Positions 33,751 through 63,300 are shown, numbered from the stretch's first letter. The stretch: DNA of 64,000 nucleotides from an uncultured Actinomycetes bacterium (GCA_963720515.1 OY970397.1:223363-287362); one strand, 5' to 3'. Numbers and translations are program-made. The notes: generated by a model not told the origin, from the letters alone.

Positions 33751-33854
33751 TGCCGCGCGGGAATCCACGCGGCCAGCAATTGGGCGCGGTTCGTCTCGCG
33801 CCCGTGCCTTGTCGCTCGGCGAGGGGACGAAGGGCTAGGCGAGGGTCCTTCACG

Positions 33855-33908
33855 CGACTACAGAGTTGCGTTTACCCCCGACTGCGCTCCAGCGACAGTA
33901 CGCTCGCG
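33855..33908 (+). repeat. cassette-boundary repeat R3
   Basis: CGACTACAGAGTTGCGTTTACCCCCGACTGCGCTCCAGCGACAGTACGCTCGCG. Confidence 0.8.
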
Positions 33909-33919
33909 GATTGAGGAGT

Positions 33920-34606: not shown

Positions 34607-34660
34607 CGTGTGCTCGCTCACCCATCCAGGCTATCGCTCGCCGCCGCCGCATCTCGCCAG

Positions 34661-34712
34661 CGACTACAGAGCTGTCTTTATCCCCGACTGCCCTCGAGCG
34701 ACAGCACGCACG
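34661..34712 (+). repeat. cassette-boundary repeat R4
   Basis: CGACTACAGAGCTGTCTTTATCCCCGACTGCCCTCGAGCGACAGCACGCACG. Confidence 0.75.
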
Positions 34713-43625: not shown

Positions 43626-43735
43626 CCCCGTTTCTTTCGGCCCTCCACGTCGCACAATTGGCCCTGTCCTGGCCGCACAGGAAGGAGCGCGGCGCCGAAG
43701 GTAGAGCGCTTGTTAGCCGCCGGAGACACCTTCGC

Positions 43736-43880
43736 CGCGCTGTGCACGAATCGGCACAAGATCTGTCCGTTTGGGACGCAGACAAGCCAGCGCTTCGGCG
43801 TTAGCCTAGGCGGCGAGAAGGGGGCGGGTCGGGAGCCCGAATCAGACGCGCGCGTGAATCAGCGCGCCGCGCGCTCGCCT
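43736..43880 (+). repeat. intergenic element family, copy C (diverged; hairpin module type 3)
   Basis: GCTGTGCACGAATCGGCACAAGAT...GACGCAGACA (43779-43784)-17 nt-TAGCCT (43802-43807)-AGGCGGCGAGAAGGGGGCGGGTCGGGAGCCCGAATCAGACGCGCGCG. Confidence 0.6.
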
Positions 43881-43882
43881 GT

Positions 43883-44908: not shown

Positions 44909-44936
44909 GACGGGGCAAACTACACTCCGAATACGT

Positions 44937-45977: not shown

Positions 45978-45998
45978 CCCCGCGGCGCGGAGGACCTC

Positions 45999-47105: not shown

Positions 47106-47149
47106 GGCTCCCGCGCCGGGCAACCCGGCGGGTGCGTTCCGTAGGGTGG

Positions 47150-47275
47150 GGGCGTGCTAGAACCGGCGCGCTTCCGGCACGATTTCGGCACACGGGCGCC
47201 CCGCGCGCGGGGCTATCGTGACTCTGGGGACGCGCGCTCCCCCAAGGGGGGAGTACGCCTCGGGGGAGACATGGC
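47150..47275 (+). repeat. intergenic element family, copy D (hairpin module type 1; -35 position degenerate)
   Basis: CTTCCGGCACGATTTCGGCACACGGG-17 nt-TATCGT (47214-47219)-GACTCTGGGGACGCGCGCTCCCCCAAGGGGGGAGTACGCCTCGGGGGAGACATGGCC. Confidence 0.65.
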
Positions 47276-47395
47276 CGGTCGGGCCGCGGCTGTCCGCGCC
47301 ACGGCCGGTTGCCTGGCACCGGGGCATGTCCCCCGGGGCCAGGGCAGGGGTCTGACCGCGGTCGTGTCCGGAAGGGGCGTGGCCAAGGAGGGCTC

Positions 47396-48679
47396 GTGCA
47401 CATAGCGCCCGCCGCCTCGCTCGTCGGCGACCTCGCCGTGCCGGGTGACAAGTCGATCTCGCACCGGGCGCTCATCCTCGGCGGGCTCGCCGACGGCGAC
47501 TCCGAGGTGCGCGGCTTCGGCGCCTCGGCCGACACGCTCGCGACCGCGGACGCGATGCAGGCGCTCGGCGCCGACGTCGAGCTCGACGGGGAGACCGTCC
47601 GCATCACCGGTGCCGGGCTGCGCGGGCTCACGCCGCCAGGCGGGCCGATCGACTGCGCGAACGCCGGCACGCTCATGCGGCTCCTGCCGGGCGCGCTCGC
47701 CGGCCAGACGGGACGGTTCGTCCTGACGGGCGACGAGTCCCTCTCGCGCCGCCCGCTCGACCGCGTCGCCGACCCACTCCGCGAGATGGGCGCGACTCTC
47801 AAGACGACCGACGGGCACGCTCCGCTCATCGTGGACGGCGGGCCGCTCCGCCCGATCCGCTACGAGCTGCCGGTCGCAAGCGCGCAGGTGAAGTCCGCGA
47901 TCCTGCTCGCAGGGCTCCTCGCCGAGGACGGGCCGACCACGGTCGTCGAGCGCCACCCGAGCCGCGACCACACCGAGCGGCTGCTGTCCGCCATGGGCGC
48001 GCGCATCACGACGAGCCCGCGCCAGGCGGCCGTCTGGCCGGCCGAGCGGCTGCGGCCGATCGACCTCGCGATCCCCGGCGACTTCTCCTCCGCCGCGCCG
48101 TTCATCGTCGCGGCCACGCTGCTGAACGGCTCGAGCCTGCGCATCCACGACGTCGGCGTGAACCCGACGCGCACCGGCCTCCTCTCCGTGCTCGAGCGCA
48201 TGGGCGCCCGCGTCTCGCTCTTCAACCGGCGCAGCGAGGCCGGAGAGCCGGTCGCCGACATCGAGGTCGTCCCGGCCGAGCTCGTCGCGACGAGCATCCC
48301 GCCGTCCGAGGTGCCGCTCCTCGTGGACGAGCTGCCGCTCTTCGCGCTCGTCGCGTCGATGGCGCGCGGGGAAAGCGTGGTGCGCGGCGCGCAGGAGCTG
48401 CGCGTCAAGGAGTCCGACCGGCTCGAGGCCGTGAAGGACGTGCTGCGCCCGATCGGCGTGCGGATCGAGACGACCGCCGACGGCATGCGGATCCGCGGCG
48501 TCCCCGCCCGGCCGCGCGGCGACACCGCCGTGGACGCCCGCGGCGACCACCGGATCGCCATGCTCGCGGCGATCGCGGGCGTCGTCTCGCGCGAGGGCAT
48601 CGAGATCCGCGACCCGGAGTGCGTGGCCGTCAGCTACCCGGAGTTCTTCTCCGTGCTCGATTCCGTCGCGCTGCGATGA
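47396..48679 (+). CDS. aroA: 3-phosphoshikimate 1-carboxyvinyltransferase (EPSP synthase)
   Basis: AAGGAGG then GTG 47396. LAVPGDKSISHRALILGGLADG...ANAGTLMRLL...DHRIAMLAAIAG. Confidence 0.93.
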   Translation: MHIAPAASLVGDLAVPGDKSISHRALILGGLADGDSEVRGFGASADTLATADAMQALGADVELDGETVRITGAGLRGLTPPGGPIDCANAGTLMRLLPGALAGQTGRFVLTGDESLSRRPLDRVADPLREMGATLKTTDGHAPLIVDGGPLRPIRYELPVASAQVKSAILLAGLLAEDGPTTVVERHPSRDHTERLLSAMGARITTSPRQAAVWPAERLRPIDLAIPGDFSSAAPFIVAATLLNGSSLRIHDVGVNPTRTGLLSVLERMGARVSLFNRRSEAGEPVADIEVVPAELVATSIPPSEVPLLVDELPLFALVASMARGESVVRGAQELRVKESDRLEAVKDVLRPIGVRIETTADGMRIRGVPARPRGDTAVDARGDHRIAMLAAIAGVVSREGIEIRDPECVAVSYPEFFSVLDSVALR

Positions 48680-48686
48680 TGCGGCC

Positions 48687-49319
48687 GTGATCATCGCGAT
48701 CGACGGCCCGGCGGGGGCGGGGAAGAGCACGGTGGCCAAGCGCGTCGCGGAGCGGCTCGGCTTCCGCTACCTCGACACGGGCGCGATGTACCGGGCGCTC
48801 ACGCTGCTCGCGCTCGAGCAGGGCGTCCCGCTCGACGATGGCGAGGCGCTCGCCGCGCTCGCCCGCGCGAACCCGGCGACGGTCGAGCGCGACCGCGTCC
48901 TCGTCGGCGACCGCGACGTGACGGCGGAGATCCGCACCGTCGAGATCGACCGCGTGGTCTCGTCCGTGGCGCGCCACCCCGAGGTGCGGGAGGTGCTGCG
49001 CGCGCGCCAGCGGACGCTCGCGGCCGACGGCGACGCCGTCATGGAGGGCCGCGACATCGGCGCCGTCGTCTGCCCCAATGCGGACGTGAAGGTCTTCCTC
49101 ACCGCGGATACGGCGGAGCGTGCGCGCCGGCGGACGGACGACCGGCCCGGGCTCGGCGTGGACGCCCTCGCGACCGACCTCGAGGACCGCGACGCGCGCG
49201 ACGCCGGCCAGATGGGCGCTGCGCCGGACGCGGAGCCGATCGACACGACACACCTTTCCATCGACGAGGTCGTCGACCACATCGTCGAGCTTGCGAGCGC
49301 ACGGGCGGGGCGCGCATGA
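48687..49319 (+). CDS. cmk: cytidylate kinase
   Basis: IIAIDGPAGAGKSTVAKRVAERLGFRYLDTGAMYRA. Confidence 0.93.
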   Translation: MIIAIDGPAGAGKSTVAKRVAERLGFRYLDTGAMYRALTLLALEQGVPLDDGEALAALARANPATVERDRVLVGDRDVTAEIRTVEIDRVVSSVARHPEVREVLRARQRTLAADGDAVMEGRDIGAVVCPNADVKVFLTADTAERARRRTDDRPGLGVDALATDLEDRDARDAGQMGAAPDAEPIDTTHLSIDEVVDHIVELASARAGRA

Positions 49320-50000
49320 GGGCGCCGAGCGTCAACGGCGTCATCTACTGGACGGTCGGCAAGGGCCTCTTCGCGAGCATCGCAAGGGGGGTCGTGCGGA
49401 TGAAGGACTACGGGCGCGAGCGCGTCCCGCGCGACGGCGGCGCCGTCCTCGCGGTGAACCACGCCGCCTGGATCGACGTCCCCGTCGTCGGCACGCTCTG
49501 CCCGCGGCGCATCGTCTTCCTCGCCAAGGCCGAGGCGCACGCCGTCCCGGGGCTCGGCCCACTGATCCGGTCGTTCGGCACGCTCTCCGTGCGCCGCGGC
49601 GAGTCCGACCGGGAGGCGGTGCGGCTCGCGCGGGAGGCCGTACGGGAGAACAACCTCCTCGGCGTGTTCGTCGAGGGCACGCGGCAGCGGGGCGGCGAGC
49701 CGGGGAAGGCGATGCCGGGCGCCGCGATGATCGCCATGGCGGAGGGCGTCCCGGTCGTGCCGGCCGCGATCTACGGCTCGCACCTCTGGACGCCGACGAA
49801 CCGCGCGCCGATCTCGGTCGCGTGGGGCGAGCCGATGCGCTTCGAGCACCTGCCCCGAAACTCGAAGGGCTACAAGGCGGCGACGGCCGAGATCGAGGCG
49901 GAGATCCGGCGCCTGTGGGAGTTCCTCGGCGAGATGCACCGCCTGGGGCGCCCCGAAGGCGTGCCGCCGCGCCGGGCCGCGCTGCCGTCACGCACTGTGA
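49316..50000 (+). CDS. plsC: 1-acyl-sn-glycerol-3-phosphate acyltransferase; 3' end unresolved
   Basis: AVNHAAWIDVPV (HX4D-type motif)...VFVEGTRQRGG...PVVPAAIYG. Its frame has no stop until 50902, so a frame break near the plsC/der junction is likely. Confidence 0.75.
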
Positions 50001-50021
50001 GCGGCGACGCTCGTCGGGACG

Positions 50022-51314
50022 GTGGCGGTGGTCGGCTTCCCGAACGTCGGCAAGTCCACGCTCGTGAATCGGCTCTCCGCCACGCGTCAGGCGGTCGTCT
50101 TCGAGACGCCCGGCGTGACCCGGGACCGCAAGGAGGTCGTGTGCGAGTGGGCGGGCAAGAAGCTCCTGCTCGTGGACACGGGCGGCGTAGACGTGGCCGA
50201 CACCTCGCCGATCACGCGCCAGGTGGCCGAGCAGGCGCGCCGGGCGGTGGAGGCGGCCGACCTCGTCCTGTTCGTCGTGGACGCAAAGTTGGGCGTGACG
50301 CCGGGCGACGAGGAGGTGGCAGCAATCCTGCGCCGGTCCGGCAAGCCCGTGATCGTGCTCGCGAACAAGGTGGACGACCCGAGCCGCGACGACGACGCAC
50401 TCGAGTTCCACCGGCTCGGCCTCGGCGACCCGTTTCCCTCGTCCGCGCTGCACGGGCACGGCACCGGCGACCTGCTCGACCGGCTCGTCGCCGACCTCGG
50501 GGCGCTCGGCGCGGCGGCCCCGGCCGAGGTGGGGGAGGAGGCTATCCGCGTGGCGGTGCTCGGGCGGCCGAACGTCGGCAAGTCGAGCCTCGTGAACACG
50601 ATCGCGGGCGAGGAGCGGGTGATCGTCTCCGACGTGCCGGGGACGACGCGCGACGCGATCGACACGGTCGTCCGCCGCGGCGACGAGACGTTCCTCTTCG
50701 TGGACACGGCGGGCCTGCGGCGGAAGCGCCGGCAGCGGCAGGGGATCGAGTACTACTCCGAGCTCCGTGCGATCCAGGCGGCGGAGCGGGCCGACGTCGC
50801 GCTCGTCCTCGTGGACGCGACCGAGGGCCTCGTCGACCAGGACCTGGCCGTGGCCGACGTGGCCCGGAACGCCGGGTGCTCGACGCTCGTCGTGCTGTCT
50901 AAGTGGGACGAGTCGGAGATCGACGTCGAGGACGTCCGGCCGAAGCTCGAGGACCGTCTGCGCCAGCGCCCGCCGGTCGTCACGGTCTCGGCCAAGACGA
51001 AGCGCGGCGTGCACCGCCTGCTCGACCGCGTCGCCGAGCTCTACGCCAAGCACACGGCGCGGATCCAGACCGCCGAGCTGAACAAGGCCATCCAGGATCT
51101 CCGAGCGCAGCGGCCGGGCCCGAGCAAGGCGGGGCGGCGGCTGAACCTGCTCTACGGCACGCAGGTGGAGACGCGCCCGCCGCGCTTTCGCATCTTCGTG
51201 AACGATCCCGGTCTCATGACCCGCGACTACGGCTACTGGGTCGAGAACCGCCTCCGGGAGCGCTTCGGCCTCTCCGGGGTTCCCGTCATCATCGACTTCG
51301 TGCGGCGCGGATGA
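50022..51314 (+). CDS. der: ribosome-associated GTPase Der (EngA)
   Basis: Two G domains (GFPNVGKSTLVNRL and GRPNVGKSSLVN) plus a KH-like tail. The true start may be GTG 49997 in another frame. Confidence 0.92.
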   Translation: MAVVGFPNVGKSTLVNRLSATRQAVVFETPGVTRDRKEVVCEWAGKKLLLVDTGGVDVADTSPITRQVAEQARRAVEAADLVLFVVDAKLGVTPGDEEVAAILRRSGKPVIVLANKVDDPSRDDDALEFHRLGLGDPFPSSALHGHGTGDLLDRLVADLGALGAAAPAEVGEEAIRVAVLGRPNVGKSSLVNTIAGEERVIVSDVPGTTRDAIDTVVRRGDETFLFVDTAGLRRKRRQRQGIEYYSELRAIQAAERADVALVLVDATEGLVDQDLAVADVARNAGCSTLVVLSKWDESEIDVEDVRPKLEDRLRQRPPVVTVSAKTKRGVHRLLDRVAELYAKHTARIQTAELNKAIQDLRAQRPGPSKAGRRLNLLYGTQVETRPPRFRIFVNDPGLMTRDYGYWVENRLRERFGLSGVPVIIDFVRRG

Positions 51315-51339
51315 CCCACGCGGCCCCGTCCCAACCGGC

Positions 51340-51467
51340 CATGTCCTCGGCGAGGCGCACTCCCCCCTTGGGGGCGCGCGGGCCCCAGCACGAACGCTAT
51401 CGAGGCCGGGCGCGCGTGTCTGTCACGGAACTGCGCCGATTGTGTGCCGATCGCTCCACAGGCGGTG
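51340..51467 (-). repeat. intergenic element family, copy E (hairpin module type 1)
   Basis: Minus-strand reading: CCTGTGGAGCGATCGGCACACAATCGGCGCAGTTCCGTGACAGACA-17 nt-TAGCGT-TCGTGCTGGGGCCCGCGCGCCCCCAAGGGGGGAGTGCGCCTCGCCGAGGACATGGCC. Confidence 0.85.
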
Positions 51468-51474
51468 GGCGGCC

Positions 51475-52434
51475 GTGAGAATCGCGGTCCTCGGCGGCGG
51501 GTCGTGGGGATCGGCGGTCGCCGCGCTCCTCGCCGAGGAGCACCACGACGTCACGCTCGTCTGCCGCGACCCGGAGCAGGCGCGCACGATCTCCGAGACC
51601 GGTCGGAACCCGCGCTACCTGCGCGACCTCGACCTCTCCGCCGTCCGCGCGGTCTCGTTCGAGGACGCCGACCTCGCCTCCGCGGAGCTCTTCGCGATCG
51701 CGGTGCCGAGCCGCGCCTTCCGCGAGGTCGTCGAGGGGCTCCCGCCGAACGACGCGCCCGTGCTCTCCCTGGTGAAGGGCCTCGATCCCGCGTCCGGCGG
51801 GCGCCTCTCGCGCGTCGTCCGTGACCGGCCGGTCGCCGTCCTCTCGGGGCCCAACCACGCGGAGGAGATCGCCGCCGGCCTGCCCGCCGCCGCCGTGATC
51901 GCGAGCGACGACGAGGCGCTCGCGACGCGTCTCCAGCACGCGGTCTTCACGCCGCGCTTCCGCGTCTACGTGAACACCGACTTGGTCGGCGTCGAGCTTT
52001 GCGCGGCGGCGAAGAACGTGATCGCGCTCGGCGCGGGCGCCGTGGACGGGCTCGGCATGGGCGACAACGGCAAGGCGGCGCTCATGACGCGCGGCCTCGC
52101 CGAGATGGTGCGGCTCGGTGACGCGGCCGGGGCGCGGCCCGAAACCTTCTCCGGCCTCGCCGGGATGGGCGACCTCATGGTCACCTGCTGGAGCCGTCAC
52201 AGCCGCAACCGCCGCGCCGGCGAGCTGATCGCGCGCGGCGCGTCCCCCGACGAGGCCAGGGCCGAGATCGCGATGGCCGTCGAGGGCCTGACGACCGCAC
52301 CGATCCTCCGCGACCTCGGCCGCAGCCTCGGAACCGAGCTCCCGATCACCGAGGCGGTGTGCGACGTCCTCGACGGCGCGTCGCCGCGTGAGGCCGTCGC
52401 GGATCTCATGGGCAGAGCCCCCACAGGGGAGTAG
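51475..52434 (+). CDS. gpsA: NAD(P)H-dependent glycerol-3-phosphate dehydrogenase
   Basis: VRIAVLGGGSWGSAVAALLA...GRNPRYL...AAKNVIALGAG. Confidence 0.92.
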   Translation: MRIAVLGGGSWGSAVAALLAEEHHDVTLVCRDPEQARTISETGRNPRYLRDLDLSAVRAVSFEDADLASAELFAIAVPSRAFREVVEGLPPNDAPVLSLVKGLDPASGGRLSRVVRDRPVAVLSGPNHAEEIAAGLPAAAVIASDDEALATRLQHAVFTPRFRVYVNTDLVGVELCAAAKNVIALGAGAVDGLGMGDNGKAALMTRGLAEMVRLGDAAGARPETFSGLAGMGDLMVTCWSRHSRNRRAGELIARGASPDEARAEIAMAVEGLTTAPILRDLGRSLGTELPITEAVCDVLDGASPREAVADLMGRAPTGE

Positions 52435-52466
52435 CGGCCGCCCGGGGCGGCATCTACCCTCAGGTC

Positions 52467-53912
52467 GTGCGATCGCTCCGACTCACGATCGGCCTCGCCG
52501 CCGTCCTCGCCTCGCTCGCCGTCGCCGGCTGCGGCGGCCAGAGCGCGGCGCCGACAAGCGCGGGCGCGTCGCTCGCGCCGGCCACGACTGCGGTGCTCGT
52601 GAGCGTCGACACGAATTTCGACGCCGCATCCTGGTCGCAGTTCCAGTCCCAGCTCGAGCAGCTCGGCGGGGAGGATCTTCTCTCGAATGCGTTCGGCGGC
52701 GACGGTCTCGACCTCGAGCGCGACGTGGAGCCCGCCCTCGGCCCCGAGACCTACGTGGTCGTGCTCAGCCTCGCCGACGAGACGAGCACCATCCTCCTCA
52801 CGCAGCCGAACGATCCGGCGAAACTCCAAGCGCTCGTGGAGAAGAGCGGCGAGCCCGCCGTGACGCGCGAGATCGAAGGCTGGTCAGCTGTCGCCGACAC
52901 CGAGGCGGCGCTCGATCGCTTCGAGGCGGCGCGCGAGCGCGGCACGCTCGAAGGCGAGGACGACTACCGCGATGCGACCGAGGACCTTCCCGGGGACGCG
53001 CTCGCGACCGTCTACCTCTCGGGGGCGGCCGCCGCGCAGGCGCAGGGCATGACGGGCGCCGGCGCGGACGACAAGACGCTCGCGTGCATCTTCGGTTCCG
53101 ACGACGGCGTTCCATCGAGCGCGTTCGCGCTGACGTCCCAGACGGACGGGCTGCGGCTCGTCGGCACGTCCGGGGGCTCGCCACTCACGGGCAACGCGTC
53201 CAAGGCGGCCGAGAATTCGCTTCCCGAGAGGGTGCCGGCCGGCGCGCTCGCGTTCATCGAGGCGCACGAGCTCGGCGACACGCTCGCGCGCGCGATCGGC
53301 TGCAGCGCCGGCAAGGAGAACGCCATGGCGCTCGGCCTCGTCGAGAGCGCGCTCGGGCAGCCGCTCGAGCAGGCGGCGAAGTCGCTCTTCGCCGGCGAGA
53401 CGGCGATCCTCGTCTATCCGCCGAAGAACCCCGAGCAGGACGGTTTCAAGTCGTTCGCGCTCGTCACGCAGGTGGACGACGGCGAGAAGGCGCTCGAGCT
53501 CGTTGACCACGTGGCGCAGGTGGCGAAGACGTTCGAGCCGGAGCTCACGTTCTCCATGACGAAGGGCGTGAACGGGTGGCAGCTCCGCATACTCGGCTAC
53601 GAGGACACGGAGGTGACGTTCGCCGTGAAGGACGATCTCCTGGTCGTGACGCCCGACCCGCTGGTCGTCGGCCGCTTCGCCGATGACGGCGAGCGCCTCG
53701 CGGACAGCGCCGGCTACAGGGACACGCTCGCTGCCGCGGGCACGCCGGACGAGACCTCGGGCCTCGCCTGGGTGGACGTTCCGGGCATCGCGAAGCTCTT
53801 CGGCGGAGGCGGCGGCGAGGCCAAGGCGCTCAAGTCGCTGGGCGGCCTCGTCCTCTGGAGCGAGCCCAAGGGCGACCGGGTTGGCATCGAGGGCTTTCTC
53901 CAGATCGGCTAG
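52467..53912 (+). CDS. putative lipoprotein, function unknown
   Basis: Signal peptide with lipobox LAVAGC. 481 aa with no motif I can assign. Confidence 0.7.
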
Positions 53913-53923
53913 CGTTCCCGCCC

Positions 53924-55201
53924 ATGTCCGACTCCTCCTTCTCCCGGCGCGACGGCGAGCGCGCGCACGAGTTCCTCTTCACCTCCGAGTCCGTCACGGA
54001 GGGGCACCCCGACAAGGTGGCCGACCAGATCTCCGACTCGGTGCTGGACGCCGTCCTCGCGGACGACCCGCAGGGCCGCGTCGCGTGCGAGACGCTCGTC
54101 ACGACGGGCCTCGTGGTCGTCGCGGGCGAGATCACCACCGAGACCTACGTGGACATCCCGCGGCTCGTCCGCGACAAGATCGCCGCGATCGGCTACGACC
54201 GCGCGAAGTACGGCTTCGACGCGCATACGTGCGGCGTCGTCGTCGCGATCGACGAGCAGTCGCCCGACATCGCCCGCGGCGTGGACGCCTCCTACGAGGC
54301 GCAGCACGGCGACGAGGATCCACTCGACCGGATCGGCGCCGGCGACCAGGGGATGATGTTCGGCTACGCCTGCACCGAGACCGAGGAGCTGATGCCGCTC
54401 CCGATCATGCTCGCGCACGGGATGACGCGGAAGCTCGCCGAGGTGCGGCGCGACCAGTCGCTCGCGTACCTGCGGCCGGACGGGAAGTCGCAGGTGACGG
54501 TGCGCTACGAGGTGGACGAGCACGGCCGGCAGAAGCCCGCCGAGATCGAGCGCGTGCTCATCTCGACGCAGCACCGCGAGGGGCTCGACATGGGCGACCT
54601 CAAGCGCGACCTCATCGAGCACGTCATCGGCCCGGTGCTCGCCGCGCGGCCGGACCTCTGCGACGAGCGGAAGCTCGCCGACCCGGACTTCGTCTACGTG
54701 AACCCGACCGGCAACTTCGTGATCGGGGGCCCGATGGGCGACTCCGGCGTCACCGGCCGCAAGATCATCGTGGACACGTACGGCGGCATGGCCCGCCACG
54801 GCGGCGGCGCGTTCTCCGGCAAGGATCCGACCAAGGTCGACCGCTCGGCCGCCTACGCGGCGCGCTACGCGGCGAAGAACGTCGTGGCCGCAGGCCTGGC
54901 CGACCGGTGCGAGCTCCAGGTCGCGTACGCGATCGGCGTCGCGCACCCGGTCTCGGTCTCGGTGGACTGCTTCGGCACGGAGCGGCTGCCGACCGGGCAG
55001 ATCGAGGCGCTCGTCCGCGAGCACGTCGACCTGCGCCCCGGCGCGATCCTCCGCGACCTCGACCTGCGGCGCCCGATCTACGCGGCCACCGCGGCGTACG
55101 GGCATTTCGGCCGCGTGGAGCCCGAGTTCACCTGGGAGCGCACGGACAAGGCCGACGCGCTCCGCCGGGCCGCGGGCGTCGCCGAGCCCGTCGCGTCCTA
55201 G
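53924..55201 (+). CDS. metK: S-adenosylmethionine synthase
   Basis: [20 protein letters not shown]...[12 protein letters not shown]...[19 protein letters not shown]. Confidence 0.96.
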
Positions 55202-55254
55202 CGCCTCCGGCTCCGGCTCCGGCGCACGAGCCGCGCTCCGCGCCCGCACCGGCA

Positions 55255-55385
55255 CCGGCTGTGGACGAACCGGCACAGACTCGGCACGGTCCCGTGACAG
55301 ACACGCGCGCCCGGCCCCGATAGCGTTCGTGCTGGGGCCCGCGCGCCCCCCAAGGGGGGAGTGCGCCTCGCCGGGGACATGGCTC
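55255..55385 (+). repeat. intergenic element family, copy F (hairpin module type 1)
   Basis: GCTGTGGACGAACCGGCACAGACTCGGCACGGTCCCGTGACAGACA (CAGACA 55298-55303)-17 nt-TAGCGT (55321-55326)-TCGTGCTGGGGCCCGCGCGCCCCCCAAGGGGGGAGTGCGCCTCGCCGGGGACATGGC. Confidence 0.85.
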
Positions 55386-55426
55386 CGGCGGACGGGTCTG
55401 AAAGGGCGTGCGAGGGCGCGGCGGCG

Positions 55427-56101
55427 CTACGCGGCGCGGACGAACAGCCCGGCGGCGGCCTTCTCGCCGAAGGAGAGCTCCTCGCCGTCTCGCCCGACGC
55501 GGAACGTCCCGTCCTCGACCGCGCGGAGCTCGACCTTCGTCCCCGGCGCGAGGCCCGCGTCGTAGTACCAGTGGAGGAGCTCGCCGTCGTGCTCGGCGAG
55601 CCGCACGACCTCCGCCTTCGACCCCGGCTCGAGCTCGGCGAGGGCCTGGAGCTCCTTGTTCTCGGCCTGCTCGAACGTCGTGTCCACCGGCCAGCCATGC
55701 GGGCAGCGCTCGGGATTCCCGAGCTTCTCGGAGATCCGCTCGATCATCTCGTCCGTGAAGGTGTCGCCCAGGAGGTCGGCCTGCACGTGCGACTCCGCCG
55801 GCGTGTAGCCCATGAAGTCCGTGAGGAGCCGCTCGATCAGCCGGTGCCGGCGCACGACGCGCTCGGCGAGGTCGCGGCCCTTCGGCGTCAGGATCGCCTC
55901 CTTCTGCTCGCCGCGCTCGACGAGCCCCTCGGCCTCGAGCCGCTTCAGCATCTCGCCCGCCGACGCCCGCGAGACGCCGAGCATGTCGGCCACGCGCACC
56001 GCGAGCGTGGGCGCGCCCTTCGTCGCCGGGTGGTACTCGCCGATCGGGAACGCGAGGAAGTAGATCGTCTCGATGTAGTCCTCGACCGAATGCCCTGCCA
56101 T
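55427..56101 (-). CDS. DtxR/IdeR/MntR family metal-dependent transcriptional regulator with FeoA/SH3-like C-terminal domain
   Basis: SVEDYIETIYFL...RVADMLGVSRASAGEMLKRLEAEGLV...RRHRLIERLL...CPHG. Confidence 0.88.
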   Translation of the reverse strand: MAGHSVEDYIETIYFLAFPIGEYHPATKGAPTLAVRVADMLGVSRASAGEMLKRLEAEGLVERGEQKEAILTPKGRDLAERVVRRHRLIERLLTDFMGYTPAESHVQADLLGDTFTDEMIERISEKLGNPERCPHGWPVDTTFEQAENKELQALAELEPGSKAEVVRLAEHDGELLHWYYDAGLAPGTKVELRAVEDGTFRVGRDGEELSFGEKAAAGLFVRAA

Positions 56102-56142
56102 GGAGCCGATTCTAGGGCGCCGTCCTCGCCTGGGGCGATCCT

Positions 56143-58080
56143 GTGTCCGTGAGCCGCTACGCCTCGGTCGTGCCGCTCGTGTCCACGCGCGCCCTCGCGC
56201 GGCCGTTCACGTACCTCGTGGACGACGCCGAGGTCGGGACGATCGTCTCCGTCCCGTTCGGCCGTGCGCGGCGCCGCGGGGTGGTCGTCGCCCTCGACGA
56301 CGCGCCTCCGCCCGACGTCGAGCCGGTCGCGGTCGAGGCGGTCATCGGTGCCGTCCCGCCCGCACTCGTCGCCCTCGCACTCTGGCTCGCCGACTACTAC
56401 GGCTCGACGCCGGCCCGCGCGCTCGCGCTCGTCGCGCCGCCTTCGCGCGCCCGCCGGGCAGGGGCGAAGCGTCGTGCCGTCCCCGAGGATCCCCCCGGCG
56501 AGGCCGCGCCCGCCGCGCTCACCGCGTCGCAGGAGGTCGCCCTCGCCCGGATCGTCGGCGCGCTCGGCTCGACCGCGCACGTCCTCCTCCACGGCGCGAC
56601 CGGGAGCGGCAAGACGGAGGTGTACCTCCGCGCCTGCGAGGCGGCCCTCGCGCGCGGGCGCGGCGCGATCGTGCTCGTTCCCGAGATCGCGCTCACGCCG
56701 CAGACCGCCGGCCGGTTCCGCACCCGCTTCGGGGATCGTGTCGCCGTGCTCCATTCGCGGCTCACAGAGGCCGAGCGCCGCGACGAGCGCGCCCGCATCG
56801 CGGCCGGCGAGGCCCGCGTCGTCGTCGGCGCGCGCTCGGCGATCTTCGCGCCCGTCGAAGGCCTCGGGCTCGTCTGCGTGGACGAGGAGCACGACGCGTC
56901 GTACAAGCAGGACTCGGACCCGCGCTACGACGCCCGCACCGTCGCGGCGAAGCGGGCGGCGCTCGAGGACGCGGTCGTCGTCTACGGCTCCGCAACCCCG
57001 CGCCCGGAGAGCTGGGCGCGGCTCGAGCGGCTCGACCTCGGCGCCCGTCTCGGCGCGCCGATGCCGCCCGTGAAGATCGTGGATCTCCGCCGCGAGACCG
57101 GCTACCCGCTCTCCACGCCGCTCCTCGCCGCGCTCGGCGCGGTCGCCGACGCGCGCGGCAAGGCCGTGCTCCTCCTGAACCGACGCGGCGTCGCGCCCGC
57201 GCTCCACTGCCGCGCCTGCGGCCTCACCGAACGCTGCGAGCTCTGCGACGTCGCGCTGACGCTCCACGCGGACGGGCGCCTCCACTGCCATCACTGCGGC
57301 GCGGCGCGGCAGGCGCCCGAGGTCTGCCGGAGCTGCGGCGCGGCCGAGGTCGCGCGCCTCGGCTCGGGCACGGAGCACCTGGAGGCCGAGCTGGCCGCGC
57401 GGGTCCCCGAGCTCGATCTGTTCCGCCTCGACGCGGACACGACCGCGCAGCCGGGGCGGCTCGCCGAGACGCTCGCGCGCTTCCGCGAGACCGACGGCGC
57501 GGTGCTCCTCGGCACGCAGATGGTCGCCAAGGGCCACCACTTCCAGGGCGTGTCCCTCGCCGCCGTGGTCGATGCGGACACGGGGCTCGGCCTGCCCGAC
57601 TTCCGCGCCGAGGAGCGCACGTTCCAGCTCGTGACGCAGCTCGCGGGGCGCAGCGGCCGCGACGCGCCGGGGCGCGTGATCGTGCAGACGTACCAGCCGG
57701 ACGCGCGGCCGATCGCCCTCGCCGCGCGCCACGCGGTGGACGAGTTCCTCGCGGGCGAGCTCGCCCGGCGCGAGCTGCTCGGCTACCCGCCGTACCGCCA
57801 GCTCGTCCGGATCGTGGTCTCCGGGCCGACCCCGGACGGCCCGCTCGCCGTGCTCGGCCAGCTCCGGGCGCGGCTCGACGGCGTCGAAGGCGTCGACCTG
57901 CTCGGCCCGGCGCCGCTTCTGCGCCTCCGCGGCCGCTCGCGCGCGCAGCTCCTGGCGAAGACGGACACGCCGCGCCGCGTCGCGCTCCCCGCCGGGCGGC
58001 TGCTCGCGGCCGCGGCCGCCGCGATGCGGAAGGACGGCCTGGCGGTTTCAGTGGACGTCGAGCCGCAGCACCAGGGCTAG
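56143..58080 (+). CDS. priA: primosomal protein N' (replication restart helicase PriA)
   Basis: LHGATGSGKTEVY (Walker A), VDEEHD, and the Cys-rich zinc region CRACG...CELCD...CHHCG...CRSCG. Confidence 0.92.
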   Translation: MSVSRYASVVPLVSTRALARPFTYLVDDAEVGTIVSVPFGRARRRGVVVALDDAPPPDVEPVAVEAVIGAVPPALVALALWLADYYGSTPARALALVAPPSRARRAGAKRRAVPEDPPGEAAPAALTASQEVALARIVGALGSTAHVLLHGATGSGKTEVYLRACEAALARGRGAIVLVPEIALTPQTAGRFRTRFGDRVAVLHSRLTEAERRDERARIAAGEARVVVGARSAIFAPVEGLGLVCVDEEHDASYKQDSDPRYDARTVAAKRAALEDAVVVYGSATPRPESWARLERLDLGARLGAPMPPVKIVDLRRETGYPLSTPLLAALGAVADARGKAVLLLNRRGVAPALHCRACGLTERCELCDVALTLHADGRLHCHHCGAARQAPEVCRSCGAAEVARLGSGTEHLEAELAARVPELDLFRLDADTTAQPGRLAETLARFRETDGAVLLGTQMVAKGHHFQGVSLAAVVDADTGLGLPDFRAEERTFQLVTQLAGRSGRDAPGRVIVQTYQPDARPIALAARHAVDEFLAGELARRELLGYPPYRQLVRIVVSGPTPDGPLAVLGQLRARLDGVEGVDLLGPAPLLRLRGRSRAQLLAKTDTPRRVALPAGRLLAAAAAAMRKDGLAVSVDVEPQHQG

Positions 58081-58092
58081 ACTGGCGCGTCG

Positions 58093-58671
58093 ATGGCCGA
58101 GGAGATCGAGGGGCAGGTCCGCGAGGGCGAGGAGCTCGACGCCGAGCGCGAAGGGCGGCGCCGGCTCGCGCTCGCGCAGGTTCGGCAGTACCCGGACCCA
58201 GTCCTGCGGCTGCGCGCCCGCGAGGTGACCGAGTTCGACGACGCGCTCGCCTCGCTCGTCGACCGCATGGGGCGGCTCATGAACGACGCGCGCGGCGTCG
58301 GGCTTGCGGCGCCGCAGCTCGGCCTGTCCCAGCGCGTGCTCGTCTACCAGATCGCCGAGGACAGCCCGGTCGTAGCGCTCGTGAACCCGACCATCGTGGA
58401 GTCCTCCGAGGAGACCGAGACGGGCGACGAGGGCTGCCTGTCGCTCGGCGCGGCGACGATCGCCGTCCCGGTCGAGCGGCCCGTGCGGATCACGGTCGAG
58501 GCCGTGGACGCCGCCGGGGAGCCGATCCGCGCCGAGGCCGAGGGGCTCGAGGCGCGCGTGATCCAGCACGAGCTCGACCACCTGGACGGCGTGCTCACGA
58601 TCGACCGGACGACGCCCGAGGCGAAGCGGGACGCGCTCGCCAAGCTGCGCCCGCAGCCCGTTCTCGGGTGA
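58093..58671 (+). CDS. def: peptide deformylase
   Basis: GVGLAAPQLG...EGCLS...HELDHLDG. Confidence 0.95.
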   Translation: MAEEIEGQVREGEELDAEREGRRRLALAQVRQYPDPVLRLRAREVTEFDDALASLVDRMGRLMNDARGVGLAAPQLGLSQRVLVYQIAEDSPVVALVNPTIVESSEETETGDEGCLSLGAATIAVPVERPVRITVEAVDAAGEPIRAEAEGLEARVIQHELDHLDGVLTIDRTTPEAKRDALAKLRPQPVLG

Positions 58672-59457
58672 AGATCGACGTCGCGGCGACCGCCCCGCTG
58701 GGGGCGGCCGTGCTCGAAGGGCTTGCCGAGCGCGGACGACGTCGAGCTGCTCGTCACGCGGCCGGACCGCCCGCGCGGGCGGGGCCGGAAGCTCGGCGCG
58801 CCGCCGGCCAAGGAGGTCGCCGAGCGGCTCGGCATCCCGGTGGAGCAGCCGGAGCGGCTGGACGACTGGCCCGGCGACGCGCCGGTCGTGGTCGTCGCCG
58901 CGTACGGGGCGCTGATTCCCTCGGCGCTGCTCGAGGACCGGCTCTGGCTGAACGTCCATCCGTCGCTCCTGCCGCGCTGGCGCGGGGCGGCGCCGGTCGA
59001 GCGCGCGATCATGGCCGGCGACGCGGAGACCGGCGTGACGATCCACCGGACGACCGCCGAGCTCGACGCGGGGCCGATCGCCGCGCAGCGGGCGTTCCCG
59101 ATCGGGCCGGACGACGACGCGGGCGTCGTGTACGAGCGGGCGGCCGCGACCGCGCTCGAGCTGCTCGACGAGGTGCTGCCCGAGCCGGCCTTCCAGCCGC
59201 AGCCGGAGGAGGGCGCGACCTACGCCGAGAAGATCGGGCCGAAGGACCGCGAGCTCGACTGGTCGCGCCCGCCGCAGGAGCTGCACGACCGGATCCGCGG
59301 GTTGGCGCCGCACATCGGCGCCCGCGGCGAGGTCGAGGGCCGCCCCGTGATCGTGTGGCGCTCGCGCCTTGTGGACGGCGGACTCGAGATCCTCGAGGTC
59401 CAGCCGGAGGGCGGGAAGCGCATGCCGCTCGAAGCCTTCCGCCGCGGTCTCCGGTGA
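58668..59457 (+). CDS. fmt: methionyl-tRNA formyltransferase, frame broken once near 58735
   Basis: GTGA overlap with def. VKIDVAATAPLGAAVLEGLAERG, then DDVELLVTRPDRPRGRGRK...HPSLLPRWRGAAP in the frame of ORF 58723..59457. Confidence 0.88.
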
Positions 59458-59580
59458 GCGCGGTCACGAACTCGGCGCAGGTCGTGACACTCTCGGCACG
59501 TTCCGTCACAGACACGCGCGGATTTCGCGCGTATCGTCAACGGCGGGGGCAAGGGGCCGAAGGCCCCCGGGGGAAGTCTC
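59458..59580 (+). repeat. intergenic element family, copy G (hairpin module type 2)
   Basis: CGGCGCAGGT CGTGACACTCT CGGCACGTTC CGTCACAGACA (59473-59514)-17 nt-TATCGT (59532-59537), then GGCGGGGGCAAGGGGCCGAAGGCCCCCGGGGGAAG. Confidence 0.85.
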
Positions 59581-59596
59581 ACGAGCGGGTTGCGGC

Positions 59597-60835
59597 GTGA
59601 CCGCGCGCGACGTCGCCTTCCAGGTCGTCCGCCGCGTCTTCGAAGACGACGCGTACGCCGACCGCGCCTTCCGCTCGGCGGCCGACGCGGCCGCGCTCGA
59701 CGAGCGCGACCGCGCCTTCGCCATGCAGCTCGCCTACGGGACGGTGCAGCGCGTCCGCACGCTCGACCACGCGATCGACACGCTCGGCCGGCGTCCCGTC
59801 CGCAAGCTCGATGCACCCGTACTGGCCGCGCTCCGCCTCGGCGCCTACCAGCTCGGCTTCATGGACGGCGTCCCCGCCCATGCCGCGGCGAACGAATCCG
59901 TCGAGCTCGTCCGCGCGGCCGGGCTCGAGCGCGCGGTCGCGTTCACGAACGCGGTCATGCGCCGCCTGGCCGAGGGCATCCGCGAGCTCGTGGCATCGCT
60001 CCCCGAGGCGACGCCCGCCGAGGCCGCGCTCCGCCACTCCTACCCGGACTGGATCGCCGAGACCTTCTGGCGCGAGCTCGGGCCCCCCGACGCGCTCGCG
60101 CTCATGGCCGCGCAGAACGAGCCGCCGCCGACCGTCGTCCGCGTGGCGGCGCGCGGCGTCGATCTCCCGGGCGAGCGGGATCCCGAGGTCCCCACCGCGC
60201 TCACGGTCGACCGGATCGCGCCCGAGTGGATCGAGCAGGGGCTCGCCTGGCCGCAGAGCCGCGGGTCCCAGCTCGCAGCACTCGCCGTCGGCGCGCAGCC
60301 CGGCGAGCGGATCCTCGACCTCTGCGCGGCCCCGGGCGGCAAGGCGATGCAGCTCGCCGAGGCCGCCGCCGAGGTGGTCGCGGTCGAGCTCCACGAGGGC
60401 CGCGCGCGTGAGCTCGAGGACACCGCCGCGCGATTCGGCCTCGCGAACGTCCGCGTCGTCAACGCCGACGCGCTGGAGCTCGACCCCGCCTACACGGGCT
60501 TCGACCGGGTGCTCGTGGACGCGCCGTGCTCCGGCCTCGGCGTCCTCGCCTCGCGGCCCGATCTGCGCTGGCGCGCCGAGCCGCTGCCCGAACTTCAGCG
60601 AGGGCTGCTCGCGGTGGCCGCCGAGCGCGTGCGCCCTGGCGGCACGATCACCTACTCCGTGTGCACGATCACCCGCGCCGAGACCGACGACATCGTGGAC
60701 GCCGGAGGCCTCCCGCTCGACGACCTCGGGGCCGAGTGGCCAGCCTTCCGCCACCCGCGGCGCCCTGAGGCGCTGCTCACGCTCCCGCATGTCCACGGCA
60801 CGTCCGGCTTCTTCACGGCGAGAATGCGCGCATGA
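59597..60835 (+). CDS. rsmB: 16S rRNA (cytosine-C5)-methyltransferase RsmB/Sun
   Basis: NusB-like N-terminus, then LDLCAAPGGK...VDAPCSGLGV...YSVCT. Confidence 0.9.
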   Translation: MTARDVAFQVVRRVFEDDAYADRAFRSAADAAALDERDRAFAMQLAYGTVQRVRTLDHAIDTLGRRPVRKLDAPVLAALRLGAYQLGFMDGVPAHAAANESVELVRAAGLERAVAFTNAVMRRLAEGIRELVASLPEATPAEAALRHSYPDWIAETFWRELGPPDALALMAAQNEPPPTVVRVAARGVDLPGERDPEVPTALTVDRIAPEWIEQGLAWPQSRGSQLAALAVGAQPGERILDLCAAPGGKAMQLAEAAAEVVAVELHEGRARELEDTAARFGLANVRVVNADALELDPAYTGFDRVLVDAPCSGLGVLASRPDLRWRAEPLPELQRGLLAVAAERVRPGGTITYSVCTITRAETDDIVDAGGLPLDDLGAEWPAFRHPRRPEALLTLPHVHGTSGFFTARMRA

Positions 60836-61509
60836 GCTGGGAGACGTGGTCGCGTGGGCCGGAGATCGAGCCGTCGCTCTACGCGGCCGACTTCGCGCGG
60901 CTCGGCGAGCAGATCGAGACGCTCCTCGACGCGGGCGTCCGGATCTTTCACTTCGACGTCGGCGACGGGCACTTCGTCGAGCCGGTCACCATCGGTCCCG
61001 TCGTCCTCCAGTCGATCTCCGGCCTCGTCCACGACCGCGGAGGCGTGCTCGACTGCCATCTCATGGTGACGAACCCTGAGCGCCACTTTCCGCAGATCGC
61101 GCGGGCCGGGGGCGACAGCGTCACGTTCCACCACGAGGTCGCGGACGATCCGGCCGCGCTGGTCGCGCAGGCGCGCGACCTCGGGCTCGGCGTCGGGCTC
61201 GCGTTCAACCCGGAGAGCGCGGTGGCCGACGCGGTCGCCGTGGCGGACGGCGTCGACCTCGTGCTGTGCATGAGCATCCATCCCGGCTACTCCGGCCAGG
61301 AGTTCATGCCCGAGGCGATCGACCGGCTCCGCGCCACGCGCGACGCGCTCCCCGCCGAGGTGCACGTGCAGGTGGACGGCGGGATCACGGACGAGAACGT
61401 CGCAGCCGTGCGCGAGGCGGGCGCCGATCTGATCGTCGCCGGGAGCGCCGTCTTCGGGGCCTCGTCCATCGCGGACGCCTACCGCGGGCTCGCGTCCGCG
61501 ATCGCGTGA
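60832..61509 (+). CDS. rpe: ribulose-phosphate 3-epimerase
   Basis: IEPSLYAADFARLGEQIE...HFDVGDGHFV...HLMV...MSIHPGYSGQ. Confidence 0.93.
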   Translation: MSWETWSRGPEIEPSLYAADFARLGEQIETLLDAGVRIFHFDVGDGHFVEPVTIGPVVLQSISGLVHDRGGVLDCHLMVTNPERHFPQIARAGGDSVTFHHEVADDPAALVAQARDLGLGVGLAFNPESAVADAVAVADGVDLVLCMSIHPGYSGQEFMPEAIDRLRATRDALPAEVHVQVDGGITDENVAAVREAGADLIVAGSAVFGASSIADAYRGLASAIA

Positions 61510-62500
61510 GCGACGACGCCCGGCACCTCGAGCGCGCGATCGAGCTCGCCGAGCAGGGCCGCGGGACGACGCGGCCGAACCCGCTCGTCGGCGCCGTCGT
61601 CGTCAGCGGACGGCGAGGTGGTGGGGGAGGGCTGGCACGAGCGGCCGGGGCTTCCGCACGCCGAAGCACTCGCGCTCGAGGCGGCGGGGGAGCGGACGCG
61701 CGGCGCGACGCTCTACGTGACGCTCGAGCCGTGCGTCCACACCGGGCGGACGCCCCCGTGCGCGGACGCCGTGGTCGCGGCCGGGATCGCGCGGGCCGTG
61801 GTCGGCGCCCAGGATCCGTACGCGCCCGTGAACGGGCGGGGTCTCACACGAATTCGCGAGGCGGGAATCGAGGTCTCGCTCGCCGAGGGCGATCTCGCCC
61901 GGCGCGTCCGGCGGCAGAACGAGGCGTTCCTCACCTGGGCGGCCGAGGAGCGTCCGTTCGTCACGTACAAGGCGGCGATGACGCTCGACGGTCGGCTGGC
62001 CGCGTCCTCCGGAGATGCGCGCTGGATCTCGGGCGAGGAGAGCCGGCGGCGCGCGCACGAGTTGCGCGCGCTCGCGGATGCGGTCGCGGTCGGCATGGGC
62101 ACCGTGCGTGCGGAGAATCCGCGCCTCGACGCCCGTGACGTGGGAGCGGAGCGCCAGCCACGCCGGCTCGCGTTCGGGCAAGGGCCGCTTCCCGAGGGCT
62201 CGGAGCTCGAGCTCGTCGAAGGCCCGCTCGACGAGGCGCTGCGCCGGCTCGCGGAGGAGGAGGTGCAGTCGCTGCTGCTGGAGGGCGGGCCCACGTTGGC
62301 CGGCGCGTTTCTGCGCGCCGGCCTCCTGGACAAGCTCGTCCTGTTCGTGGCGCCGACGCTCATCGGCGGCGACGACGCGCCGCCGCTCTTCGCGGGCCCG
62401 GGCGCGCAGACGCTTGCGGAGGCGGTTCCCCTGTCTCGCCCTCGAGACCGACCGCGCGGGCGACGACGTCGTCCTGACGGCGTACGTCCGCGAGCCCTAG
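61506..62500 (+). CDS. ribD: bifunctional riboflavin biosynthesis deaminase/reductase RibD, frame broken near 61610 and 62430
   Basis: RAIELAEQGRGTTRPNPLVGAVVV / GEVVGEGWHERPGLPHAEALALE...LEPCVHTGRTPPC...KAAMTLDGR...LLLEGGPTLA / ETDRAGDDVVLTAYVREP. Confidence 0.88.
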
Positions 62501-62534
62501 CCTCCGAGGCAGCCGTCCGACGCGCCGCTGGCGC

Positions 62535-62655
62535 CCGCAAGCGGGCGCTCCCCCCGTTCGGGGGCGCGAGGCTCCCAGCACGAACGCTATCGGGGCCGGG
62601 CGCACGTGTGTGTCGCGGAACTGCACCGAATCTGTGCCGATCGCTCCACAGGCCG
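62535..62655 (-). repeat. intergenic element family, copy H (hairpin module type 1 variant) between ribD and ribE
   Basis: Minus-strand reading: CCTGTGGAGCGATCGGCACAGATTCGGTGCAGTTCCGCGACACACA-17 nt-TAGCGT-TCGTGCTGGGAGCCTCGCGCCCCCGAACGGGGGGAGCGCCCGCTTGCGGGCGC. Confidence 0.8.
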
Positions 62656-62703
62656 GGGGCCCCGGCCTCGGCAGGCGCGACCCGCCCGCGTATCGTTTCC
62701 CGC

Positions 62704-63300
62704 ATGTTCACGGGGATCGTGCGCGAGGTCGGGACCGTCGAGTCGGTCGAGCCCGTCGCCGAAGGCGGCGCGCGCCTGCGCGTGCGCGCGGCCCGGACCG
62801 CGGCCCGCACGGCCACCGGCGACTCCGTCTCCGTCGCAGGCGTGTGCCTCACGGCGATCGAGGTCGTCGAAGGGTCGATCGCCTTCGACGCCGTGCCGGA
62901 GACGCTCGCCCGCACGACGCTCGGGGCGCTCGAGCCGGGCGCGCGCGCGAACCTCGAGGCCGCGCTCCGCGCCGGCGATCCGATGGGCGGCCACGTCGTC
63001 CAGGGCCACGTCGACGGCGTCGGCACGGTCGTCTCGCTCGCGCCCGAGGGCGACGGCGCGCGCCTCACTGTTGAGCTCCCCGAGTCGCTCGCGCACCTCG
63101 CGGCCGAGAAGGGCTCGATCGCGCTCGACGGCGTCAGCCTCACCGTCGCGGCGCTCGACGGCGCGCACGTCGAGATCGCGCTCGTGCCGCACACGCTTGC
63201 CGAGACCACGCTCGGCGCCCTCGCCCGGGGCGACCGCGTCAACGTCGAGACGGACATCCTTGCCCGGCAGGTCGAGCGCCTCCTCGAAGCGCGCCGGTAG
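62704..63300 (+). CDS. ribE: riboflavin synthase alpha subunit
   Basis: MFTGIVREVGTV...GDSVSVAGVCLT...MGGHVVQGHVDG...GSIALDGVSLTV. TATCGT lies 7 nt upstream of the ATG. Confidence 0.94.
   Translation: MFTGIVREVGTVESVEPVAEGGARLRVRAARTAARTATGDSVSVAGVCLTAIEVVEGSIAFDAVPETLARTTLGALEPGARANLEAALRAGDPMGGHVVQGHVDGVGTVVSLAPEGDGARLTVELPESLAHLAAEKGSIALDGVSLTVAALDGAHVEIALVPHTLAETTLGALARGDRVNVETDILARQVERLLEARR

Follow-up and report, generated by a model that had tools for sequence, protein, structure and literature searches.

A dispersed family of putative promoter-leader cassettes with alternative G-run-initiated modules in an uncultured Gaiellaceae-like soil actinobacterium

Introduction

BOX, RUP, and REP/BIME elements are promoter-bearing intergenic repeats, and Qrr1-5, LhrC, and PrrF are multi-copy sibling small RNAs in which the siblings share an RNA and differ little from each other. 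In Bacillus subtilis, pyrG is attenuated through GTP/NTP-dependent reiterative transcription. The example of the Correia repeat enclosed elements of Neisseria shows that a dispersed repeat can carry promoters (PMC2649163). Known 5' stabilisers include 5'-terminal stem-loops, the cryIIIA STAB-SD, and the B. subtilis polypurine stabiliser of Hue et al. (as listed in PMC3997798).

By analogy with the 5' mRNA stabilisers, the cassettes described here would provide a short structured or purine-rich element at the 5' end that is portable between genes, but the cassette module is welded to one promoter family, falls into at least eight classes, and precedes tRNAs and often nothing. Like Correia, BOX, RUP, and REP-BIME elements, they show lineage-specific insertions, are present in about 100 intergenic copies of about 100-150 bp near gene ends, contain hairpins, and can supply promoters. 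Unlike Correia-type repeats, they have no terminal inverted repeats or target duplications that could be seen and no linked transposase, while their promoter is internal and directional and has phased repeats of the activator type. Several short paralogous units with one promoter type also recall sibling small RNAs, but the RNAs of the cassettes are of unrelated classes, and their modules are also found at the head of mRNAs and tRNAs. The likeness to pyrG lies in a G-run at the predicted +1 position followed by a pairable pyrimidine-rich strand; in contrast to pyrG, the cassettes have no U-tract terminator and many have no downstream gene. A search of the literature on Gaiella promoters or small RNAs found nothing relevant.

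An earlier note on this DNA had described three interchangeable hairpin modules downstream of one promoter core and had suggested a modular small-RNA family or, alternatively, a promoter cassette recombined with different modules. Here we analyzed the cassettes of the window, that is, the whole stretch of 64,000 nucleotides, and their relatives in the host and related genomes.

Cassettes of the window

The window belongs to a 2.615-Mb genome (G000), represented by a single contig with a G+C content of 71.4% and assigned to an uncultured Gaiellaceae-like soil actinobacterium. In genome and metagenome scans, the identity of its MetK to that of MAGs labelled Thermoleophilia or Gaiellaceae did not exceed 80%.

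The stretch under study is the type-1 module (positions 55327-55385, plus strand) of the cassette designated F. The whole unit, from CTGTGGA to approximately GGACGGG, occupies positions 55255-55407 of the plus strand, with the ends taken from the alignment of cassettes E and F, and lies in the interval from the stop of metK (55201) to that of a convergent gene (55427). Its upstream part (55258-55305, plus strand) comprises CTGTGGA, GKCACA repeats phased at 11 bp, and the -35 block GTGACAGACACG (55294-55305); the -10 hexamer TAGCGT (55321-55326, plus strand) is a variant specific to type 1. The module itself consists of a G-run at 55334, the predicted start, followed by a C-run, the second G-run GGGGGGAG, and the tail unit GGACATGG.

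The sequences and coordinates previously given for eight cassettes in the window were all verified. The nearest relative of F is cassette E (51340-51470, minus strand), also of type 1 and located antisense in the der/gpsA interval; the two are mutually closest, with an identity of 0.87 over 114 nt. Cassette E occupies a 160-nt insert between der and gpsA (51314-51475). Two more copies carry type-1 modules. Cassette D (47150-47395, plus strand) has a diverged promoter with the -10 hexamer TATCGT (47214-47219) and a long leader with GACATGGCC / TGCCTGGCAC repeat units reaching the GTG at 47396. Cassette H (62500-62655, minus strand) is antisense, facing the 3' end of an upstream rib gene, and has a second hairpin, GCCCGC-UUG-GCGGGC, 3' of the module; the reported change of its loop was confirmed (C5-GAAC-G6 in H versus C6-AA-G6 in F). 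The GACAYGGCC / TGCCTGGCAC units that fill the long leader of D (47265-47395) constitute a second dispersed repeat family, found, for example, at genome positions 154468, 1361395, 1545044, and 2169535.

Type 2 is represented by cassette B (25709-25815, plus strand; -10 hexamer TACCGT at 25768-25773 and module at 25774-25815), which faces a convergent stop at 25826, and by cassette G (59458-59580, plus strand; -10 hexamer TATCGT at 59532-59537 and module at 59538-59580), which sits 17 nt 5' of the GTG of an rsmB-like gene (59597). The stem GGGGCC/GGCCCC reported for G is present at 59553-59567. Type 3 includes cassette A (20186-20310, minus strand), with the -10 hexamer TAGCCT at 20243-20248 in the minus-strand reading and the reported 16-bp palindrome AGACGCGCGCGCGTCT indeed present at 20191-20206, and cassette C (43736-43860, plus strand), with a diverged promoter and the -10 hexamer TAGCCT at 43802-43807. 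A 53-nt direct repeat, GYRACTACWGRG...GACAGYACGCWCG, that recurs through a small gene island at 31751-34712 belongs to a different family, unrelated to the cassettes.

Copy number and distribution

The core CCGTSACAGACACG had eight matches in the window versus 1.83 expected, and eight matches were reached in none of 100 shuffles. An nhmmer profile of the promoter part identified 96 copies in the G000 genome, and about six additional copies with a diverged -35 block were found beyond these. Matches to the strict pattern occurred in 17 of the 41 related genomes, with a maximum of 20 in G007 and 17 in G023, and the module classes of G000 recur in other genera of the family. No matches to Rfam 15 were found in the window at gathering thresholds; for 20 representative cassettes of all classes, the search at E<=5 returned only a spurious HOTTIP_2 hit of 12.5 bits. 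The finding is real and extensive and is best described as a dispersed family of promoter-leader cassettes comprising at least eight lineages of G-run-initiated modules.

Promoter half

The promoter consists of the CTGTGGA block, three GKCACA repeats phased at 11 bp, a weak -35 element (CAGACA), a 17-bp spacer, and a -10 hexamer TAnnnT. In aligned copies, the phased repeats read CGGCACA-N4-CGGCGCA-N4-CGTGACA; these direct repeats abut the weak -35 element, and the core is GTCACAGACACG or GTGACAGACACG. Direct repeats with a phasing of about 11 bp that replace or abut the -35 element characterize promoters of the OmpR/PhoB (MtrA-like) type, and by its sequence the promoter half of the cassette, modules excluded, has the features expected of this type. 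The rRNA promoter of G000 is plain, TTGACA-N17-TAGTAT, with a consensus -35 element and no phased repeats. Compared with it, the weak -35 element and the phased GKCACA repeats make the cassette promoter look activator-dependent.

The first G-run begins 7 nt (57 copies) or 8 nt (9 copies) past the -10 hexamer, that is, in 66 of 92 copies, and this position is the transcription start site predicted from the sequence. Alternating purine-pyrimidine runs, which are Z-DNA-prone, are present in most cassettes as ACACGCGCGC in the spacer and as (CG)3-5 near module tails, for example, at positions 55300-55312 and 20191-20206 of the window.

Module classes and their linkage to the promoter

Clustering of the 70 nt past the -10 box revealed at least eight recurrent module classes genome-wide. 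The largest, with 32 copies, is characterized by GGYTGGTTGGGGGTGGGYTGGGAGCCC, and type 3 (cassettes A and C) is its variant or subtype. Type 1 (T1) comprises 13-17 copies and is related to T7, the GGGGGGCGCTCGCCCCCTTGGGGGCACGTGGGGCC class; type 2 (T2) has 10-11 copies; T4 is a 55-nt GCTGAGG...CCTCAGC class and T5 a GGGTGGCGGGYGG...CCCCACCC...GGGTGGGG class. Several smaller classes and singletons account for the remaining modules. The modules are 35-70 nt long and G-rich, mostly with the order G-run / C-run / G-run: the first 40 nt contain 44.6% G versus 29.6% C, and G exceeds C in 79 of 92 copies. A palindrome AGAC(G/C)nGTCT was considered as a general tail and discarded, being present in six cassettes only.

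Module profiles searched against the genome found the modules behind a cassette promoter in 26/26 cases for class A, 10/11 for T2, 9/9 for T4, and 7/7 for T5. Apparently promoter-less modules have diverged copies of the same promoter upstream, so that no module without the phased-repeat promoter was found in this genome-wide search. In the -35 block, differences are as frequent within classes as between them (0.147 versus 0.143 per site). In contrast, members of one class resemble each other more than members of different classes do in the spacer, the -10 hexamer, the discriminator, and the phased repeats, and the observed difference was reached in none of 500 permutations; the hexamers TAGCAT, TAGCGT, TAGTNT, and TACGCT are each typical of a class. 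Since the spacer, -10 hexamer, and repeats co-vary with the module class, the cassettes evolve as whole lineages.

These data refine the picture of one promoter core with three unrelated, interchangeable modules. The core is the same with respect to the -35 block, but the spacer, -10 hexamer, and phased repeats depend on the class. Alternative modules behind the promoter are real, although their classes number at least eight, and type 3 is only a subtype of the 32-copy class. Nor are the classes fully unrelated, given the common G-run start and the shared G-run / C-run / G-run build. Co-variation between class and promoter limits the swapping of modules; the class does, however, differ at two of nine orthologous sites.

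Two further explanations of the modules were rejected. A leaderless micro-peptide starting at the GTG or ATG found past the -10 hexamer in class A would have its first codon only 1-2 nt from the hexamer, and its stops are inconsistent and its frame is interrupted by 1-nt indels. Mimicry of Shine-Dalgarno or anti-Shine-Dalgarno sequences does not hold as a general rule: the 16S rRNA has the standard tail CCUCCUUUCU, and GGAGG-like runs such as GAGGGAGG and GGGAGG are found in several classes only. The distance from the module to the start codon varies from 10 to more than 400 nt.

Genomic context

The context was assessed with crude gene calls based on third-position G+C (2,296 genes, 85% of the genome). 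In 37 cassettes both the upstream and the downstream gene have the direction of the cassette, and in 5 the upstream gene is divergent and the downstream gene co-directed; a co-oriented gene thus lies downstream of 42 of the 95 cassettes. The downstream gene is convergent in the other 53, with the upstream gene divergent in 28 and co-directed in 25. In these 53 cases the convergent gene ends 35-100 nt past the predicted start, and such cassettes could therefore make only short or antisense RNA. A gene 3' end adjoins 90 of the 95 copies, and divergent gaps hold only five.

The co-oriented targets are housekeeping genes of unrelated functions, including rpoZ, an EF-G-like gene, mqnA, miaA, rsmB, purN/H, fdhD, and others, as judged by inspection of the predicted products rather than by family searches. 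Co-oriented cassettes were also found about 100 nt 5' of tRNA-Gly(tcc) (class T7; G000:C1:26600-27100, locus L289) and tRNA-Lys(ctt) (class T5; G000:C1:2009350-2009850, L290), and from this arrangement the promoter-leader unit appears to drive tRNA genes. Two other cassettes converge on tRNA-Phe and tRNA-Arg (G000:C1:1900650-1901150, L291, and 2058550-2059060, L292). This pair shares about 200 nt of similarity past the module, which may represent another conserved non-coding element near tRNA 3' ends.

Gains and losses at orthologous sites

Orthologous sites were compared with G007, which represents another genus and has about 78% protein identity and a 400-kb stretch collinear with positions 76-512 kb of G000; only sites with both flanking orthologs found were considered. 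A cassette in the same orientation is present in G007 at nine of them, namely at 78127, 83956, D, G, H, 292790, 296719, 324785, and 504823. The class is kept at D, H, miaA, mqnA, 292790, and 296719, while it changed at 83956 and 324785 (2/9 pairs); at the G site, G007 has the promoter and a related CCCCCGGGGGA module. The ortholog of H belongs to the same class and carries the hairpin GCCCGC-GGA-GCGGGC.

Six cassettes, C, E, F, 306850, 462704, and 503323, are absent from G007, where the gaps at these sites are 0-66 nt: 4 nt for C, 58 nt for F, 33 nt for 306850, 66 nt for 462704, and 18 nt for 503323. In place of E, der and gpsA overlap by ATGA without a spacer. Cassette F is also absent from G001, with a gap of 34 nt. 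Overall, 7/9 co-oriented and 2/6 stand-alone cassettes are kept in G007, both numbers being small; of the testable stand-alone copies, H and the minus-strand copy at 296719 are kept, and C, E, F, and the minus-strand copy at 306850 are absent. T1 paralogs within G000 are closer than positional orthologs (H and E, 0.82; H and its G007 ortholog, 0.67), which indicates that cassettes were gained, or homogenised, within the lineage.

RNA structure

The fold energies of ten representative modules gave z-scores from -1.85 to +1.7 relative to dinucleotide shuffles, and both T2 examples folded worse than their own shuffles. In the minimum free energy structures, the 5'-terminal G-run is paired in the T1, T2, T6, and T7 examples and unpaired in class A and T5. 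The C-run of T1 and T7 has two possible partners, the 5' G-run (mean -9.1 kcal/mol) and the 3' G-run plus its flanks (mean -16.6 kcal/mol), and in 30 of 32 copies the second gives the more stable pairing. Two mutually exclusive pairings, as proposed earlier from the alternating G- and C-runs, are thus possible on paper for T1 and T7, according to the folding models.

Evidence of covariation, suggested as a check on the stems, was absent from the T1 consensus and modest elsewhere. RNAalifold applied to 25 T1 modules left four invariant C:G pairs and zero compensatory changes. By anchored counting, the first pair flanking the 5' G:C core of T1 is complementary in 21 of 30 distinct copies versus 14.8 expected (83/5,000 permutations), with both A-U and C-G types present, and the second flanking pair gave no signal; the T1 C-run is 1-3 nt longer than the 5' G-run. 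In 32 class-A hairpins of the form GGG-YY-GGG-RR-CCC, the fourth pair is C-G in 7, U.G in 12, U-A in 7, and A-U in 1, and in the related G023 class, three of 17 pairs are compensated and several are G.U. Such wobble pairs are consistent with RNA of the sense strand and inconsistent with a DNA palindrome or the antisense RNA. In T5, GGG-N-GG-N-GGG-N-GG, the G positions are fixed and the N linkers vary, and the central A/U of the C-strand is uncompensated. A G4Hunter score of at least 1.2 was obtained for 49 of 92 cassettes, in no case for the opposite strand, versus 3.4% of intergenic windows taken at random; modelling predicts two-tier quadruplexes for class A and T5.

Termination and decay machinery

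Searches for Rho (TIGR00767, PF07497) gave no hit in G000 or in any of 24 further members of its family, including genomes with a completeness of 96-98%; one other family of the order has it (4/4 genomes). A G-rich leader counteracting Rho was thus rejected, which leaves 5'-end protection as the most economical role at the RNA level; RNase J is encoded in G000. No canonical terminator, that is, a hairpin with a U-tract, follows the modules, and a 19.5-kb part of the window (43500-63000) contains one terminator-like site, outside the cassettes, versus 2.6 in shuffles. The absence of a detected Rho and the scarcity of terminators in these 19.5 kb suggest that hairpins near promoters and at gene ends may be of greater importance here than they are in model bacteria.

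On the reverse strand, T2 modules have a terminator-like form, GGGGCC-UUCG-GGCCCC followed by UUUU, UCUU, or UUUG, which may serve the five of ten T2 copies that face a convergent gene. In the der-gpsA unit, no promoter-like hexamer for gpsA was seen in the short gap between E and gpsA. Since E is antisense inside this unit, which must be read through, the modules cannot be efficient terminators in that direction.

Relation to mobile elements

Neither terminal inverted repeats nor target duplications were seen in 14 close pairs or in the comparison of filled and empty sites of E and F, although the flanks are diverged and short duplications could be missed. Being without these hallmarks, the cassettes were not classified as MITEs. 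The genome encodes a single RAYT-like Y1 transposase (G000:C1:66618-67247, minus strand), located between maf and mreB and flanked not by cassettes but by direct repeats GTGCCAGGCA (GTGCCAGGCAxC)..CATGGCCG..GACxCGGCC. The T1 tail alone shares the GACATGGCC unit with these repeats. Cassettes and RAYT genes do not co-occur across genomes: G007 has more than 20 cassettes and no RAYT homolog, while G002-G004 have homologs and no strict cassette matches. A RAYT-driven REP family was rejected on these grounds, together with the different repeat flanking the RAYT-like gene. With no terminal repeats or target duplications and no link to this gene, no copying mechanism was identified.

Interpretation and alternatives

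Our tentative interpretation is that the stretch under study belongs to one copy of a dispersed promoter-leader cassette, of which it is the transcribed 5' module, a 5'-end structure acting in cis. Since modules precede genes, tRNAs, or nothing, we take them to be leaders built into a cassette that spreads rather than established genes for small RNAs. The module would form the 5' end of a downstream mRNA, of a tRNA precursor, or of nothing further, and would most likely serve to provide the transcript with a 5' end that is base-paired or formed by a G-tract. Because RNase J is encoded, such an end could shield the RNA from decay that depends on the 5' end; the module may also shape early transcription. 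Copying into gene boundaries would create orphan or antisense promoters, a few of which would then be retained. Several observations argue against a leader function: 53/95 cassettes lead nothing, the folds are not exceptional, T1 lacks compensatory changes, and the 5' G-tract is unpaired in class A and T5. The invariant G- and C-runs could equally be DNA-level signals.

The stand-alone copies might instead be true small-RNA genes, members of a modular multi-copy family that is controlled by one regulator and works in trans; one such role would be that of decoys, drawing off a factor whose other binding sites are the same modules in mRNA leaders. The layout of one promoter with alternative modules, found genome-wide and in other genera, agrees with this part of the earlier note, as do the 53/95 cassettes that stop at a convergent gene within 35-100 nt. 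So does the retention in G007, with the same class, of two stand-alone copies whose structures outlast their sequences: in H the terminal hairpin is kept and its loop changed (UUG versus GGA), and at 296719 the palindrome is kept with its sequence changed (AGACGCGCG...CGCGUCU versus CCGGGUACCCGG). Yet the same modules lead 42 genes and two tRNAs, 4/6 testable stand-alone copies are lineage-specific, a canonical terminator is lacking, the T1 consensus shows no covariation, and E lies antisense within a der-gpsA unit that must be read through; we therefore consider a small-RNA family unlikely. The other proposal of the note, a promoter cassette recombined with modules, is nearer to the data, but promoter and module mostly travel together, with class changes at two of nine sites. 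We consider it quite unlikely that the cassette is a dispersed repeat functioning at the DNA level, as REP, MITE, or Correia elements do, with palindromes and repeats serving mobilisation or protein binding and the promoter incidental or secondary. Such a repeat would account for the roughly 100 intergenic copies, 90/95 of them beside a gene 3' end, for insertions relative to G007 and G001 at gaps of 0-66 nt, for paralogs homogenised within the genome, and for the GACATGGCC unit common to T1 tails and the RAYT-flanking repeats; moreover, C-run/G-run inverted repeats with loops of 0-4 nt make poor RNA hairpins and good DNA palindromes. It fits less well with the lack of terminal inverted repeats and target-site duplications, the abundance of cassettes in G007 without a RAYT homolog, the U.G wobbles that favour a sense-strand RNA stem, a -10/-35 geometry like that of the organism's own rRNA promoter, and the conservation of many copies before orthologous genes.

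The arrangement of runs also allows for a bistable, attenuator-like leader in which the 5' and 3' G-runs compete for the C-run, with an outcome that might be set by the length of the start-site G-run through GTP/NTP-dependent reiterative transcription. The G-run lies exactly at the predicted +1, the T1 C-run exceeds the 5' G-run by 1-3 nt, T1 and T7 have two exclusive pairings, and the first flanking pair of T1 is complementary more often than expected, with A-U and C-G types. This explanation is improbable: there is no U-tract terminator, the start codon lies anywhere from 10 to more than 400 nt away, half of the copies control no gene, and class A and T5 fall outside the three-segment scheme. 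Very improbable is a role of the hairpins limited to terminating the transcripts of the flanking genes or stabilising their 3' ends; the note had named action as terminators alone as refuting its own proposal. The terminator-like reverse strand of T2, half of whose copies face a convergent gene, and the scarcity of canonical terminators in a family without detected Rho speak for it. However, 42/95 cassettes have no convergent gene, and on this ground the refutation fails; in addition, modules never occur without the promoter, E inside der-gpsA must be read through, and classes other than T2 have no U-tract on either strand.

A more far-reaching version of the cassette interpretation, which we give little credence, is that a self-spreading cassette rewires a regulon of about 100 promoters in a family without detected Rho, with copies that arrive at gene boundaries in either orientation being co-opted as gene, tRNA, or antisense promoters and with G-run / C-run / G-run leaders working as bistable switches at the first nucleotides.

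If the interpretation of the modules as cis-acting leaders is true, an uncultured but abundant soil lineage, the Gaiellaceae, relies on a single portable cassette for a large proportion of its transcription units, among them tRNAs, rpoZ, miaA, and rsmB. The module classes would then be new leader or small-RNA motifs absent from Rfam, and the gains or losses of copies between genera would document, in nature, how regulons grow as promoters spread. Another use of the cassettes could be as ready-made parts for expression in high-G+C actinobacteria.
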